From the IMG/VR virus record IMGVR_UViG_2531839524_000011: a DNA stretch of 38,945 bases; one strand, 5' to 3'. Within the stretch, counting starts at the first letter, position 1. Each line of letters starts with the position of its first letter. A model generated the notes under the pieces. The model was not told the origin of the DNA, made no database searches, and saw only the letters and a program-made list of their open reading frames with translations. Source of the DNA: a virus (taxonomy: Duplodnaviria > Heunggongvirae > Uroviricota > Caudoviricetes). The translations under genes were made by a program, and so were the position numbers. This document shows, piece by piece, positions 5,861 through 11,885 of the stretch.

Positions 5861-8683
5861 ATGACGGCAGAGTACATCAGGGACTGGCAACAACCGCGCC
5901 ACGCAGTGGGGCGTGAAGGAACGGGGATCCCCACTCCTGAATCCGCGCTTTCCTCCTGGCTGGATGCCTACCGGGCAGAGAACGAGCGCCGCCAGGAAAT
6001 GGCTGATGCGGCGTTCTCCGCCACGCCGCTGGGCAACCTGATTAATAAAAGCCTGGACGCACAGGAAAAACAGGACAAAACCATCACACTGGCAGGAGAC
6101 GCCAGAAAGCAGGCACGCGGCGCGGTGGATGAAGCCATGGCCTCGCTGCGCCTGCTGCCGTCCTATCTGCGCGATCCGCTTATTCGCCACCTCTCCTTCC
6201 TGCGCAAAAAACAGGAATCTGACCGCCAGAAAGGTAAAAAGAACCAGCAGGCTGAACGCTACGCGCGCGGGACCCTGCGCAAAATATTCGAACGTCTGGA
6301 CCGCACCGACCACCGCTGGCTGACACCGGGTTATCGCGCCCTTGCCGGACGCGAACGCCTGGATGATTTGCTTTACCTCCCGCAGCTCAACAAGCACCAG
6401 ATACAGACGCTGGCCACCATGACGGCGGCGATGTTCAGCAGCACCTTCGAAAAACTCTGCGATGGCTTTGGCGCAACCGATGGCGAGCTGACCATGGATG
6501 TAACCCTGAAGGCGTATCAGATGCTGGCCCGCATGGCGTTACACCTGCACGCCATGCCTCCACATTATGACGCACTGACAACAGACAAAGACCGGAGGAA
6601 CGAACCGGACACGGAGCTGCTGCCGGGCGCAATCCTTCGCCTGACCTGTGCGGAATGGTGGAAACGCAAACTGTGGCTGTTACGTTGCGAGTGGAGAGAA
6701 GAACAACTCCGCGCCGCCTGTCTGGTTTCCAGAAAAACATCGCCCTATCTGAGCCAGGACGCGTTAAGCGAGTTTCGCGCACAGCGCGAGAAGACACGCG
6801 ATTTCCTGAAAAGTTTCATGCTGGAAAACGAAGACGGGTTCACGATTGATCTCGAGACAGTGTATTACGCGGGAGTAAGTAACCCGGTTCACCGTAAGGC
6901 AGAAATGATGGCCACCATGAAGGGACTGGAACTTCTGGCCGAAGCCCGTGGCGACAGAGCGGTGTTTCTGACTGTCACCTGCCCGTCAAAATACCACGCC
7001 ACAACAGAGAACGGTCATCCGAATCCCAAATGGAACGGGGCCACCATGCGCGACTCCAGCGATTACCTGGTTAACACGTTTTTTGCGGCTGTCCGCAAAA
7101 AACTGAACCGCGACGGTCTGCGCTGGTATGGCATCCGCACGGTGGAGCCTCACCATGACGGCACCGTGCACTGGCATATGATGGTCTTTGCTCATCCGGA
7201 AGAAATCGACACCATTGTGTCCCACACCCGCGATATTGCCATTCAGGAAGACCGCCACGAGCTGGGCGATGACATAACTCCGCGCTTTAAGGCGGAGTAC
7301 GTCGACGGCTCAAAAGGCACACCAACCAGCTACATCGCCACCTACATCGGAAAGAACCTGGACAGCCACGCCGTGGATGGCATCGACCCGAAAACGGGCA
7401 AGCCACGCGTTGACCACGAAACCGGAAAATCAATGGCCGAGAGCGTGGAGCGCGCCATCGGCTGGGCACGCCTTCACCGGGTCCGCCAGTTCCAGTTCTT
7501 TGGCATTCCCTCCCGTCAGGTGTGGCGTGAACTCCGCCGCCTTGCCAGCCAGATAGCACGCAACCCGGAAGGCCCGCAACGGCTGAAGGATGATGCAATG
7601 GATGCGGTACTCGCTGCCGCTGATGCCGGATGTTTTGCCACCTACATTGAAAAACAGGGCGGCGTACTTGTTCCACGCAAGGACTACCTGATTCGCACCG
7701 CCTACGACCTCGCCGATGAGCTGAACGATTACGGCGAACAGAGCGTACAGATTTACGGGATCTGGTCACCACTCATCGGGGAATCCTCCCGTGTGTGCAC
7801 GCATCCGGATAACTGGAAGCTGGTAAGACGCAAACCGGAAGCGAAAGACAGCGCCCGCGAAAATGGTTTTGACCTTCAGGGCGGCCCTGCCGCCCCTTGG
7901 ACTCGTGGCAATAACTGTCCCCGTGTACAGGAAACGGACAACAACGGGACAGAACAGCCGGAAGAACGGCCAGCACCGTGGCCGCAGCTTCCTGACGGCG
8001 TTGACGTGAATGAATGGATGCGCTCACTGAAACGGCACGAACGCCGGGCGCTGATGCGTTCGCTGCGTGACAAACAGGCAAAAAACAGCAGTGATGAGAT
8101 GCAGAGCTGGACACAGAGCCGCAAACAGCCGCGGCCTTTGCCTGATAACCACGAATTACTCGCTAAAGAATGGCGGGAGTCTGCTGAATCTCTCGGCCTG
8201 CATATCGGTGAACAGCAAATGCAGCACCTGTTACGGGGCGGCAGTCTGTACGTTGACGGCAGCATCATTGCACCGCAGGGATTTGAAATTGTACGCAAAC
8301 CGGATACCCGCCCGGACAGCCGAATCACGCAGCTCTGGCTGCGCCTGAGCCGTAATCACGGCGTAAGCAGCACGGAGATCCGCCATAACCCGGTCGCCAG
8401 TTATCTGGAACAGCTAGGGGCATCAGCCCCCGAAGCCGCCGCACGCCTGGCATCCACACTTCAGCAAGACCAGAACACCATGAAAACACCCGTTACCGTG
8501 CTTTCTGACATGCTGCGCGCCATCCGCGACGCAGAGCACGCGCAGAGAATCAGTGAAACTGCTGAACGCGCCCGCCGCAAAGCAGACCTGCTGCGGGGTG
8601 GCCTGACCAGCGGAAACAAAAAACAGACAGAAACGGGATTCACAAATCCCGTAAATGAGCAAAAAACGCGCCGCGATATATGA
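5861..8683 (+). CDS. A: Rolling-circle replication initiator (P2 gpA-like HUH endonuclease)
   Basis: 940 aa; HUH motif in GTVHWHMMVFAHPEE and paired catalytic tyrosines in TPTSYIATYIGKN, as in P2 A / phiX174 A-type initiators; position after the early genes. Confidence 0.9.
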   Translation: MTAEYIRDWQQPRHAVGREGTGIPTPESALSSWLDAYRAENERRQEMADAAFSATPLGNLINKSLDAQEKQDKTITLAGDARKQARGAVDEAMASLRLLPSYLRDPLIRHLSFLRKKQESDRQKGKKNQQAERYARGTLRKIFERLDRTDHRWLTPGYRALAGRERLDDLLYLPQLNKHQIQTLATMTAAMFSSTFEKLCDGFGATDGELTMDVTLKAYQMLARMALHLHAMPPHYDALTTDKDRRNEPDTELLPGAILRLTCAEWWKRKLWLLRCEWREEQLRAACLVSRKTSPYLSQDALSEFRAQREKTRDFLKSFMLENEDGFTIDLETVYYAGVSNPVHRKAEMMATMKGLELLAEARGDRAVFLTVTCPSKYHATTENGHPNPKWNGATMRDSSDYLVNTFFAAVRKKLNRDGLRWYGIRTVEPHHDGTVHWHMMVFAHPEEIDTIVSHTRDIAIQEDRHELGDDITPRFKAEYVDGSKGTPTSYIATYIGKNLDSHAVDGIDPKTGKPRVDHETGKSMAESVERAIGWARLHRVRQFQFFGIPSRQVWRELRRLASQIARNPEGPQRLKDDAMDAVLAAADAGCFATYIEKQGGVLVPRKDYLIRTAYDLADELNDYGEQSVQIYGIWSPLIGESSRVCTHPDNWKLVRRKPEAKDSARENGFDLQGGPAAPWTRGNNCPRVQETDNNGTEQPEERPAPWPQLPDGVDVNEWMRSLKRHERRALMRSLRDKQAKNSSDEMQSWTQSRKQPRPLPDNHELLAKEWRESAESLGLHIGEQQMQHLLRGGSLYVDGSIIAPQGFEIVRKPDTRPDSRITQLWLRLSRNHGVSSTEIRHNPVASYLEQLGASAPEAAARLASTLQQDQNTMKTPVTVLSDMLRAIRDAEHAQRISETAERARRKADLLRGGLTSGNKKQTETGFTNPVNEQKTRRDI

Positions 8684-8728
8684 AGCGCGCACAAAACAGG
8701 CAAAAACGGGATTTCAGAATCCCGTAAA
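8616..8728. repeat. Two roughly 39-bp direct repeats, each containing a palindrome (cgggatt...aatcccg); candidate ParR-binding centromere/operator
   Basis: acaaaaaacagacagaaacgggattcacaaatcccgtaaa (about 8616..8655) and acaaaacaggcaaaaacgggatttcagaatcccgtaaa (about 8691..8728), straddling the A stop and the parM promoter. Confidence 0.6.
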
Positions 8729-8759
8729 CGATTAATTAATCAACATAAGGAAAAGCGAC

Positions 8760-9719
8760 ATGAAAATTTGTATCGACGACGGCTCCACCAACATCAAGCT
8801 GGCATGGACTGAGAACGGCGAACGCCGCAACGCCATCAGCCCGAACAGCTTCAAGTCGGAATGGTCTGCGCCGTTCGGCGGCACGCAGCCCGCGAACTAC
8901 ATGCTTGATGGCGTGCGCTATGGTTTTGATCCGGTCAGCGATCGCTTTGTCCAGACGACCGACACGCAATACCAGTACAGCGATGTGAATGTCATTGCCA
9001 TTCATCACGCGCTGGTCAAATCAGGCATCACGCCACAGGAGGTGGATGTGGTTGTCACCCTGCCACTGAGCGAGTATTTCGACACAAACGCACAGCCGGA
9101 CATGGCCAACATCAACCGCAAAAAAGCGAACGTTATGCGCCCGGTGGAGTACCAGAACGGCGAAGCATTCACTATCCGTAACGTGCGGGTTATGCCTGAA
9201 TCCATTCCGGCTGGCTTTAAGGCACTGGCTGACATGAGTCCGTTTGAATCCCTGCTGATTGTGGATTTGGGCGGAACCACGCTGGATGTGGCAAAGGTTC
9301 AGGGGCAACTGGCAGGTATCAGCCAGGTGTTTTGCGATCCACACGTAGGCGTTTCCCTGATGGCCGATGCCGTACTGTCGGTGATGGCCACTAACGGTAT
9401 GCGTACCAGTCACCACATCGCCAATACCATTATCGAACATCGCCATGATGAAGCCTGGCTGCGCCAGCACATCCACAATGACGCGCATTACGCCAGCCTG
9501 ATGGCGGTTATTCGTGAAAAGGAAGAAACACTGAAACAACGCGTGATCCGCGCGCTGGCGGTTTTTTCGGGTTACGGGCGGGTGATGGTTGTCGGTGGCG
9601 GGGCGGAGATTGTGGCACCCGCTATCCGCGAAGCCTGCGGAGTTAATGCGACTTTCATCGCGGATGGGGTGCCACAGTTTGCTCTGGTTAATGGGCTGTA
9701 CGCAATGGACAAGGAGTAA
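8760..9719 (+). CDS. parM: ParM/StbA-like actin-family partition ATPase
   Basis: 319 aa; MKICIDDGSTNIKLAW, YSDVNVIAIHHAL, MPESIPAG, LIVDLGGTTLD and VMVVGGGAE match the plasmid R1 ParM (StbA) signature blocks as I recall them. Confidence 0.85.
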   Translation: MKICIDDGSTNIKLAWTENGERRNAISPNSFKSEWSAPFGGTQPANYMLDGVRYGFDPVSDRFVQTTDTQYQYSDVNVIAIHHALVKSGITPQEVDVVVTLPLSEYFDTNAQPDMANINRKKANVMRPVEYQNGEAFTIRNVRVMPESIPAGFKALADMSPFESLLIVDLGGTTLDVAKVQGQLAGISQVFCDPHVGVSLMADAVLSVMATNGMRTSHHIANTIIEHRHDEAWLRQHIHNDAHYASLMAVIREKEETLKQRVIRALAVFSGYGRVMVVGGGAEIVAPAIREACGVNATFIADGVPQFALVNGLYAMDKE

Positions 9720-9723
9720 ACCA

Positions 9724-10035
9724 ATGACGACACCAACCAGACGGATAAGTTTCTATCTGAAGCCCGCCGCCGTCAAGAACGAAGGCGAAGCATGCGCCTG
9801 GCTGGACAGCCTTACACCAGAAGCCCGCAAAAGCGGCCAACGCGTGGCTTTTCTGGCCGGGCTGGCACTACTGAAAATGAATCCGGCAGATGCTTACCGA
9901 CTGGCTGCATGGGCTGATGATGAGGCGTTATCAGTGACACAAACCAGGACAGAACGCCCCGCGTCACAGCCAGTATCAACCGCACAGATAACCAGTCAGA
10001 TGGCCGGAAATATCCGGGCGTTATTTCCCGATTAG
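9724..10035 (+). CDS. parR: ParR/StbB-like partition adaptor (ribbon-helix-helix type)
   Basis: 103 aa from ATG 9724; RRISFYLKP...RVAFLAGLALLK resembles the R1 ParR N-terminus (RTIAFKLNP...RAALTAGLALYR) as recalled; immediately downstream of parM. Confidence 0.6.
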   Translation: MTTPTRRISFYLKPAAVKNEGEACAWLDSLTPEARKSGQRVAFLAGLALLKMNPADAYRLAAWADDEALSVTQTRTERPASQPVSTAQITSQMAGNIRALFPD

Positions 10036-10164
10036 AACTTTGCACGGGCGGTTTCCAGTTCTGAAAACAATCAGCAAAGAAGGTGTCGAACGTCAAAGAT
10101 ATAAGGCCGCCTAGCTGGCGGTCTTGTGTCTTAAAATATGTTTATCTTAATGAGGATTATAATT

Positions 10165-10689
10165 TTATGAAAAATAATCATCATGAGAGGAAACATGCAA
10201 ATTATAATCACTCAATTGGGGAATAATCCCCCTACTCCAAAGCAACGTTTTATTTAGTCCAAGTCCATCTAATTTCATCATCCTGTTGCGCAGCGCAATG
10301 AACTCATTCTTGAAGTTATCTGCAGAGATGATTTTTGGGCAAAAACAAGAATACAATTTTCTGTTACTTACGCCACAAGCATTGGCAAGCTCATCCTCAA
10401 AATTGCTTGTTTGTTGAAATAGGTGGATTGTGTGTTTTTTCGCCTTTAATAGATTTAGGTTATTCTTAAATCTACCAAGATTCTCAATCCTATCCGTATC
10501 AAAAACCACTATAATTTCGCTATTTTCGGTTAATGCTGGCATGTATTTATTTATATTAACATTCCATAAATTAGCAATTACTATTTTCTTAATAGGATAG
10601 CCTAGCAATGTTTTGAAATCCTGAAACAATGCTTTTTCCGTATCTCCCTCAACGAGAATGATAGCAAATTTCTTAACTGCCATAATCAA
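10165..10689 (-). CDS. TOPRIM-domain protein (OLD-family C-terminal-half-like / AriB-like), 174 aa
   Basis: N-terminal ILVEGDTEK conserved glutamate followed by IIVVFDTD (DxD), the TOPRIM metal-binding signature; start overlaps the ATPase stop (ATGA); very AT-rich. Confidence 0.6.
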   Translation of the reverse strand: MIMAVKKFAIILVEGDTEKALFQDFKTLLGYPIKKIVIANLWNVNINKYMPALTENSEIIVVFDTDRIENLGRFKNNLNLLKAKKHTIHLFQQTSNFEDELANACGVSNRKLYSCFCPKIISADNFKNEFIALRNRMMKLDGLGLNKTLLWSRGIIPQLSDYNLHVSSHDDYFS

Positions 10690-11885
10690 TCCTCAAATAG
10701 CATCTCTTCGATTAATGAAACGTCAGGTATTGTTGCAAAACAGTCATTTTTTACTTTATTTAAAAGATTGCGATCATTCTTTTTATGATGTGTGGTAGCT
10801 TCAACAAAAGTGGTTAAACCATCTACTTTTTTAGTAAAAGTATATGAATGCGTAGGCAGATCTAAGCTCAAGATATCATAATTATGTGTGGTGTATATAA
10901 ATTGACCATACCTGCAAAGCTTAGATATAATCAGTGTGACCATCATTTTTTCTAATTCAGTATGAGTGAAGGCCATTTTCTCATCCAAAAAGTACACCCC
11001 ACTGCAAGGGAAATTGAACTCACGCTCTTCTATTTTATCTTCAAGCACTCCTGACAGGAGATGGGATATTTTTACTGCCTCATAAGTACCACGAGACAGT
11101 CTATCTTTATTTGTTATATCACCTTCCATATCAATAATAACTCTATCTCCATTATTGAAGACTACTGAATACCCCTGCAAATCCTCCTTTCCCTCATCAT
11201 CTTTAAGAGTGAGTCCTGAGACAGATTTAACAGTATTGTCAAAAGTTTTTAATATGCTATTAAGCACATTCTTCTTAATTCGGGATATTTTATCCGTGTT
11301 CTCTTGGTTTTCAGATAGAATGAAATGCCAACCAAGAACAAAGTCCAAATCCTCTAAATATTGGGAAAATTCTTTTGAGTTAGCGTTTTCAGTTGAAAAA
11401 AATCTATTTTGACCATTTAATTCAAACTTTTGCGCATCCCACACAGCATCCAATCTTTTGGTCGTCTTTGCGCATGATTCCGAGCTTCTTAAATCAACAG
11501 ATGCCATTGCAATTTTTTCTACAACAACAGACTCATCCATAGCCCTAAGCCAGAAACCTGCCCTAAACAAACATTTTAAATGACTCTGGAAAAAGTCAAC
11601 CTCTATATATGCAGGTTTTCTTTTGTCAGTAATTTTTAACGGTTCTGGATTAAAAACACCACTACTGAGAAAACGCAACACAGAAAGCATCACGCGACCA
11701 AGAGATGTTTTACCAGATGCATTAGCACCAGAAACGATGCAAACCTTTTTGAAGTAGAATTTTTCAAATCCATCAATGTACTCACCTTCCAGTGAGCTGT
11801 TGACCGGGGGTCTGGAGAAGCTTAAGTCAAGGATGCTATTTTCAAAGCAAAAAAGATTATCGATTCTGATTTTTGTAAAAGCCAT
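10686..11885 (-). CDS. ABC/SMC-type ATPase (OLD-family N-terminal-half-like / AriA-like), 399 aa
   Basis: Walker A GANASGKTS; ABC-signature-like LSRGTYEAV; Walker B VYFLDE; H-loop IYTTHN; AT-rich island located in the P2 tin/old slot between A/par and portal Q. Confidence 0.75.
   Translation of the reverse strand: MAFTKIRIDNLFCFENSILDLSFSRPPVNSSLEGEYIDGFEKFYFKKVCIVSGANASGKTSLGRVMLSVLRFLSSGVFNPEPLKITDKRKPAYIEVDFFQSHLKCLFRAGFWLRAMDESVVVEKIAMASVDLRSSESCAKTTKRLDAVWDAQKFELNGQNRFFSTENANSKEFSQYLEDLDFVLGWHFILSENQENTDKISRIKKNVLNSILKTFDNTVKSVSGLTLKDDEGKEDLQGYSVVFNNGDRVIIDMEGDITNKDRLSRGTYEAVKISHLLSGVLEDKIEEREFNFPCSGVYFLDEKMAFTHTELEKMMVTLIISKLCRYGQFIYTTHNYDILSLDLPTHSYTFTKKVDGLTTFVEATTHHKKNDRNLLNKVKNDCFATIPDVSLIEEMLFED

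Follow-up and report, generated by a model that had tools for sequence, protein, structure and literature searches.

Why should a phage that lysogenises by integration carry a partition cassette of the type known from low-copy plasmids, and on which DNA would such a cassette act? The question is raised by IMG/VR virus record IMGVR_UViG_2531839524_000011 (Caudoviricetes), a DNA of 38,945 nucleotides (nt) that is referred to here, at its full length, as the window. An earlier note, made from the letters of this DNA, had described a plasmid-type ParM/ParR actin partition cassette with iteron-like repeats inside a P2-like prophage. The cassette comprises parM, encoding an actin-fold partition ATPase, parR, encoding a predicted centromere-binding adaptor, and two repeats just upstream of parM. 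It is best explained as an almost fixed component of the P88/Xuanwuvirus lineage within the P2-like temperate phages and not as a decaying plasmid remnant. We also consider it probable, with appreciable room for doubt, that the cassette functions as an R1-family type II (ParMRC-type) module and that its targets are transient extrachromosomal circles of the phage.

Assignment of ParM and ParR

The two open reading frames were found as the earlier note had described them: parM at 8760–9719 and parR at 9724–10035, both on the + strand and encoding 319 and 103 amino acids (aa), with 4 nt between the parM stop and the parR start. The 319-aa protein was covered end to end by the Pfam models StbA_N (1.8e-82) and ParM C-terminal domain (6.3e-69), matched the crystal structure of R1 ParM (PDB 1mwk) at E = 8e-93 across residues 2–316, and was 47% identical to R100 ParM, with the DDGSTNIK, MPESIPAG, DLGGTTLD and GGGAE blocks aligned. 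The nucleotide-binding blocks (phosphate-1, phosphate-2 and adenosine motifs) are intact. All five blocks that the note had quoted (IDDGSTNIKL, VIAIHHAL, MPESIPAG, IVDLGGTTLD and VVGGGAE) are present in the translation and align with R1/R100 ParM.

The 103-aa protein matched PF10784 at 8.5e-24 (cut-off 25 bits), the family in which authentic R100 ParR/StbB was also placed (2.6e-30). Its N-terminal 62 residues (aa 6–67) were 32% identical to R100 ParR (E = 3e-8). PHROGs files both proteins as 'partition protein' (ParM in phrog_691, ParR in phrog_2515); NCBIfam gave no useful match for either, and a PDB sequence search with ParR returned nothing meaningful. The R1-type assignment of both proteins is thus borne out by profile and pairwise tests.

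ParR was aligned with 22 homologues, with identity down to 42%. Its layout is an N-terminal RRISFYLKP segment (invariant in 22/22 homologues), a helical region, a hypervariable linker (aa 68–93) and a conserved C-terminal tail, which reads NIRALFP(D/E) here and has its N-I-x-x-x-F-P columns invariant in all 22. Related tails, (K/Q/G)N(I/A)xxLFP, end the ParR proteins of four other phage lineages and resemble the R100 ParR C-terminus, KKNAMKLIN.

Selection and recombination

Selection was analysed in 88 related loci from IMG/VR and phage records, nearly all of which have intact reading frames. For parM, the ratio of nonsynonymous to synonymous polymorphism (pN/pS) was 0.06 (68 distinct alleles), and the protein is nearly invariant. 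For parR, pN/pS differed by domain, being 0.12–0.17 in the N-terminal part, about 0.75 (near neutral) in the linker and 0.04–0.15 in the tail, a pattern that fits an adaptor role.

On an almost uniform parM background, parR occurs as two deeply diverged alleles and, beyond these, in numerous linker variants; the two alleles share about 55% identity and, judged by a synonymous divergence of about 0.49, are old. Homology with relatives (loci L003–L087) ends at several points within parR, at about 9778, 9866, 9912 and 10030 of the window. These end-points place parR on the recombining edge of the hotspot between gpA and gpQ and suggest that hotspot recombination reaches into the gene. In one record, phage 503458 (NC_049341.1), parM (matched in 4 pieces), gene A, portal and terminase are each split into short open reading frames, which look like frameshift-rich sequence and not like biology.

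The repeats upstream of parM

Gene A, which encodes the P2-type replication endonuclease gpA, ends with a stop codon at 8681–8683, and a spacer of 76 base pairs (bp) separates it from parM. Two direct repeats of 42 nt each, 81% identical and 73 bp apart from start to start, form the putative parC-like site. Repeat 1 (8617–8658) overlaps the last codons of gene A and contains dyad 1 (8633–8652, ACGGGATTCACAAATCCCGT), centred 117 bp upstream of the parM ATG. Repeat 2 (8690–8731) lies in the spacer and contains dyad 2 (8706–8725, ACGGGATTTCAGAATCCCGT), centred 44 bp upstream of the ATG. Both contain the perfect 8+8 dyad ACGGGATT-N4-AATCCCGT, a pattern with no further occurrence in the 38.9-kb window (0.02 matches expected by chance); two matches were reached in 0/100 shuffles. 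The earlier note had proposed direct repeats of roughly 39 bp, each with a palindrome, overlapping the 3′ end of gene A as an iteron-like, parC-like site. The repeats and their palindromes are there at a length of 42 nt, the overlap holds for repeat 1 only, and the repeats form two separate sites of dyad symmetry instead of iterons arrayed in tandem.

Both sites, written as YGGG-N10-CCCR, are kept in 82/84 P88-like loci. The other two loci match the dyad pattern once only. One of these has a lone hybrid repeat, consistent with a 73-bp deletion through direct-repeat recombination; such a deletion would take the normal end of gene A with it.

Exactly two YGGG-N10-CCCR dyads lie upstream of parM in each of three lineages, with centres at –117/–44 relative to parM in E. 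coli, –123/–51 in Plesiomonas and –120/–47 in Hafnia. Their spacing is 73, 72 and 73 bp, respectively, and the background is 0.06–0.12 matches per 220 nt; the pattern was set after the alignment had been inspected, so that these statistics are post hoc. The Plesiomonas and Hafnia dyads have arms of only about 4 bp around a 10-nt gap, from which it follows that the conserved feature is a protein-type dyad and not a hairpin. The AAWCCCR half-sites resemble the iteron cores of R100 parC (AAACCCA, ATACCCA). Where extra genes split gpA from parM, as in Hafnia and Enterobacter, the upstream sites remain with parM.

The N-terminal ParR strand reads RKISFYL in Serratia and Enterobacter and RR(I/V)SFYL elsewhere; set beside the different upstream sites of those two lineages (described below), this small sample hints that strand type and dyad type co-vary. 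An unbiased k-mer search for a motif common to all five lineages found A-tracts only. Comparison across lineages supports the view that the upstream repeats behave as the conserved cis site of the par module in diverged phages. This site is probably a ParR-binding centromere/operator and not an R1-style ten-iteron array, ParR binding being predicted from sequence.

A ATTAATCAA box (8732–8745) between dyad 2 and the ribosome-binding site has been retained in the lineages of E. coli, Plesiomonas and Hafnia; it may be a protein site, an element of the leader or a weak –10 element.

A simple scan from gene A to parM found no sigma-70 consensus and no plus-strand terminator. Weak promoter candidates were seen by eye only, overlapping dyad 2, so autoregulation would be a guess. 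Since neither a terminator nor a consensus promoter follows gene A, the simplest reading is that parMR is transcribed by read-through from the early replication operon.

Distribution in chromosomes, plasmids and phages

Of 5426 complete E. coli genomes, 1303 contain the cassette; 1441 of its locations are chromosomal and 2 are on plasmids. It accompanies about 94% of this gpA type in those genomes (1279 versus 1355 genomes). Roughly one in four sequenced E. coli, O157:H7 and ST131 strains among them, bears it inside a chromosomal prophage. ParM was thus found on an integrating element with integrase, repressor and Cox, and not on a low-copy extrachromosomal replicon. The chromosomal location argues against routine plasmid lysogeny and favours action on transient free circles; it also weakens the suggestion in the earlier note that the cassette might stabilise an episomal form.

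In PLSDB, NZ_CP148288.1 (plasmid pZ1323PEC0009-2, from an E. coli isolate from a cat) is a whole circular P88-like genome of 34,461 bp with integrase. This circle may represent a genuine episome, or the phage genome in excised or replicating form. The remaining PLSDB matches were prophages inserted in large plasmids, or chromosome-sized records. Within the phage collection, isolated phages with this ParM type were the Xuanwuvirus group and the P1-like phage D6 only; the D6 homologue is annotated 'StbA type plasmid stability protein', and D6 is a phage that we take to be a plasmid prophage.

No close plasmid source was found when ParR was compared with plasmids by tblastn, the matches lying only in records that also bear phage gpA-parM (94–98% DNA identity); the nearest plasmid ParMs seen were about 47–52% identical. 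ParM identity falls from 92–100% among P88-like phages to at most 62%. The next relatives, from Plesiomonas (62%), Hafnia (62%), Serratia (58%) and Enterobacter (54%), are all in P2-like prophages. The four genera share the order gpA, zero to two genes, parM, parR (PF10784), variable cargo and portal. The recurrence of gpA-parM-parR in such diverged prophages indicates that the association with P2-type replication genes is old and recurrent.

An IMG/VR scan with the five-lineage ParM alignment, aimed at more diverged phage copies, returned P88-like loci only, and a GTDB scan with the single protein gave three loci only. More distant ParM/ParR (PF10784) pairs, with ParM identity of 49–50%, were seen in chromosomes of Mangrovibacter (L099), next to Rep3/ParAB (an integrated plasmid), and of Dickeya (L100), next to TraG/TraU and an integrase, resembling an integrative and conjugative element (ICE). 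A 226-kb contig labelled Vagococcus sp. (NZ_JBQPOM010000071.1) carries the prophage parM at 98% protein identity and is probably contamination or a mislabelled assembly.

Comparison with known systems

The identity of the cassette is already known, being both annotated and published as an observation. The earlier note had called a partition system unexpected in such a phage; it is annotated in P88 and in more than 1300 E. coli genomes, and was remarked on by Rousset et al. 2022 (PMC9122126), who place a putative plasmid partitioning system between gpA and gpQ in roughly one quarter of the P2-like phages of E. coli. That putative system, the ParM and partition annotations of P88, and PHROGs 691 and 2515 all describe the same element as studied here. 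Term searches and abstracts of Rousset et al., the P88 annotation and PHROGs yielded no cis site, selection pattern, ParR mosaic, conservation in other genera or functional test. To this the present analysis contributes a two-dyad cis site conserved between lineages, the selection pattern, the mosaic structure of ParR and a distribution that extends more widely through the P2-like phages.

The closest known system is parMRC (stbAB) of plasmids R1 and R100 (NR1). Shared features are the full-length ParM homology (47%), a PF10784 ParR with a similar tail motif, the order (putative) cis site, parM, parR, and the bipartite, A-rich build of that site with AAWCCCR cores, the R100 iterons likewise forming two clusters upstream of parM. 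The plasmid systems differ in that their carriers are low-copy plasmids, whereas the carrier here is an integrating P2-like phage. In the plasmids, two sets of five direct 11-bp iterons flank a clear promoter; the phage has two dyads of inverted half-sites (four half-sites) 73 bp apart and no detected consensus promoter. R100 ParR has 116 aa against 103 in the phage protein, and their N-terminal domains are only 32% identical.

The srpMRC system of SXT/R391 ICEs is likewise a ParM-type system on an element with a chromosomal resting state, and has been shown experimentally to stabilise the transient excised form; its small adaptor binds to repeats that precede the ATPase gene (Carraro et al. 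2015, PMC4489591). SrpM and SrpR are distant from R1 ParM and ParR, whereas the phage proteins are close members of the R1 family, and the carrier is an ICE with oriT/TraI replication as opposed to a phage with gpA rolling-circle replication. The function of srpMRC is demonstrated; that of the phage cassette is deduced.

Passages on the Corynebacterium glutamicum prophage CGP3 (PMC4446434, PMC5539076) describe AlpA/AlpC/alpS, in which an actin-like filament protein and an adaptor that binds phage DNA sites serve phage DNA transport and efficient replication after induction. As described there, CGP3 is, like the present phage, an integrated prophage encoding an actin-like filament protein plus a DNA-binding adaptor. 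It is an actinobacterial prophage, with another host and phage type, and the likeness is one of description.

Proposed role

From the observed homology, selection and synteny we infer the following course of events. ParR, as ribbon-helix-helix dimers, would bind at both dyads, which are spaced by 73 bp and closely precede parM, and its conserved C-terminal tail would capture the ends of ATP-dependent ParM filaments. The filaments would push apart or position copies of the phage genome while that genome is a free circle, that is, after infection and before integration, and again after excision or during gpA-driven replication, which in phages of the P2 type yields monomeric circles. The cassette would be expressed by read-through from the early (replication) operon. 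The net effect would be fewer phage-free daughter cells, better replication and packaging, or both, and not a permanent plasmid-type lysogeny. If so, active partition in brief free-circle phases, shown for SXT/R391 ICEs and CGP3, would extend to the classical P2 family, and the two dyads would provide a very small natural centromere for asking how few ParR sites cap a ParM filament.

Several points weigh against this proposal. A benefit would need at least two free copies, because a single non-replicating circle gains nothing from partition, and no functional study or experiment on the cassette was found in the literature searched. The expression timing is deduced from a simple consensus scan. 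An AlphaFold model of the ParR monomer (22-sequence alignment) had a mean pLDDT (predicted local distance difference test score) of 54.7, too poor to confirm a ribbon-helix-helix fold; at this low score its unstructured N-terminus and helices at 20–29, 32–35, 39–52 and 54–61 are compatible with that fold and undiagnostic. Within the P88-like population, diversity in the dyad arms was 0.049–0.061 versus 0.050 at synonymous sites, which is no extra conservation. The Serratia and Enterobacter loci have a long inverted repeat of another kind and lack these dyads. With no more than two dyads, or four half-sites, against ten iterons in R1, the cis site may be an operator only.

A different emphasis, possible but distinctly less probable, treats the cassette as a phage cytoskeleton tied to P2-type replication and not to plasmid maintenance. 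The minimal two-dyad centromere would, when bound by ParR, let ParM filaments separate and position gpA rolling-circle monomers, and the diverged ParR alleles would act as incompatibility groups among co-resident P88-like phages. The gain would then be better replication, packaging or spread of phage genomes among dividing or filamenting cells.

Alternative explanations

The evidence on distribution and recombination bears on two further explanations. Passages of Rousset et al. (PMC9122126) suggest plasmid maintenance, in which the phage would lead a phage-plasmid lifestyle and, instead of integrating, persist by means of the cassette as a stable plasmid prophage at low copy number, and the presence of the same ParM type in P1-like D6 and the deposition of a 34,461-bp P88-like circle as a plasmid (NZ_CP148288) are in its favour. 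We regard it as unlikely: the circle retains integrase and may be an excised or replicating form, the other PLSDB matches are prophages in large plasmids or chromosome-sized records, only 2 places in the 5426 genomes are on plasmids, and alongside int, C and cox the phage encodes a gpA replicon of the rolling-circle type, no plasmid copy-control module being evident. Slightly less credible again is that parMR is accessory hotspot cargo directed against competitors or the host, through incompatibility with or exclusion of R1-type plasmids or related superinfecting phages, or as a host fitness factor. The cassette does lie at the edge of the variable gpA-gpQ hotspot with its defence genes, next to an AbiLi/AbiLii-like pair; parR is a mosaic of deeply diverged alleles with several recombination end-points inside it, and the phiSM paper (PMC6456863) lists the cassette as a putative fitness factor. 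However, ParM and ParR match no PADLOC defence model, parM is almost invariant, unlike cargo, and goes with nearly all of this gpA type, the cassette comes with conserved cis sites of its own in the phage DNA, and four other diverged lineages retain it in its position by gpA with differing cargo.

The dyads themselves could be RNA or DNA hairpins and not ParR sites, serving as minus-strand intrinsic terminators or as elements of gene A or of the origin. A terminator-like scan flagged both on the minus strand, where a T-rich run follows each, repeat 1 lies within gene A, and arm diversity is near the neutral level. We nevertheless judge this improbable, as no minus-strand gene ends at the dyads, the nearest minus-strand operon ending 1.4 kb away with a hairpin of its own (10107–10121). 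In addition, the GGG-N10-CCC sites of Plesiomonas and Hafnia, with arms of about 4 bp, make poor hairpins and good protein dyads, the sites stay linked to parM where gene insertions follow gpA, and arm polymorphisms are not compensatory. Passive carriage of a non-functional remnant of an old plasmid-phage recombination is strongly disfavoured. Function is not demonstrated, and the distance to the closest plasmid ParMs seen (about 47–52% identity) implies an old acquisition, but purifying selection on parM and parR is strong and domain-specific, reading frames are intact in nearly all 88 loci, and the module is conserved across five diverged phage lineages.

Prophage setting and neighbouring genes

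The window is collinear with phage P88 (Peduoviridae, genus Xuanwuvirus; NC_026014), and this collinearity, together with an integrase, a C-type repressor and Cox, confirms the integrative P2-like prophage of the earlier note. The integrase gene occupies 1–1020 on the – strand (the window starts inside it), the C-type repressor gene 1102–1500 on the – strand and the Cox gene 1537–1824 on the + strand. Megablast of 8400–10200 returned 14 phage records at 95–98% identity, labelled 'plasmid segregation protein ParM' or 'partition protein'; the annotated P88 genes are 98% identical to the par genes of the window.

Gene A (5861–8683, + strand, 940 aa) matched Pfam Phage_GPA at 6.9e-131 and is annotated in P88 as a replication endonuclease; it adjoins the par module upstream, as context rather than part of the module. 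The Phage_GPA model spans residues 179–502 only and leaves a long C-terminal part uncovered. In parM-bearing relatives gpA ranges from 785 to 907 aa.

Downstream of parR, a G+C-rich hairpin, CCGCC-N5-GGCGG (10107–10121), lies between the parR stop and a convergent AbiL-like operon. It was flagged on the minus strand by the terminator-like scan and probably also ends the parMR transcription unit, its use on the + strand being read from the sequence. The operon consists of two overlapping genes (10165–11885, minus strand), which make up an AbiL-like pair of anti-phage genes within the P2 gpA-gpQ hotspot. Its products are a 399-aa AAA_15 ATPase (PADLOC AbiLi, 7.6e-28) and a 174-aa OLD-type TOPRIM/RloB-like protein (AbiLii, 6.5e-5). 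P88 and other relatives have different genes at this site.

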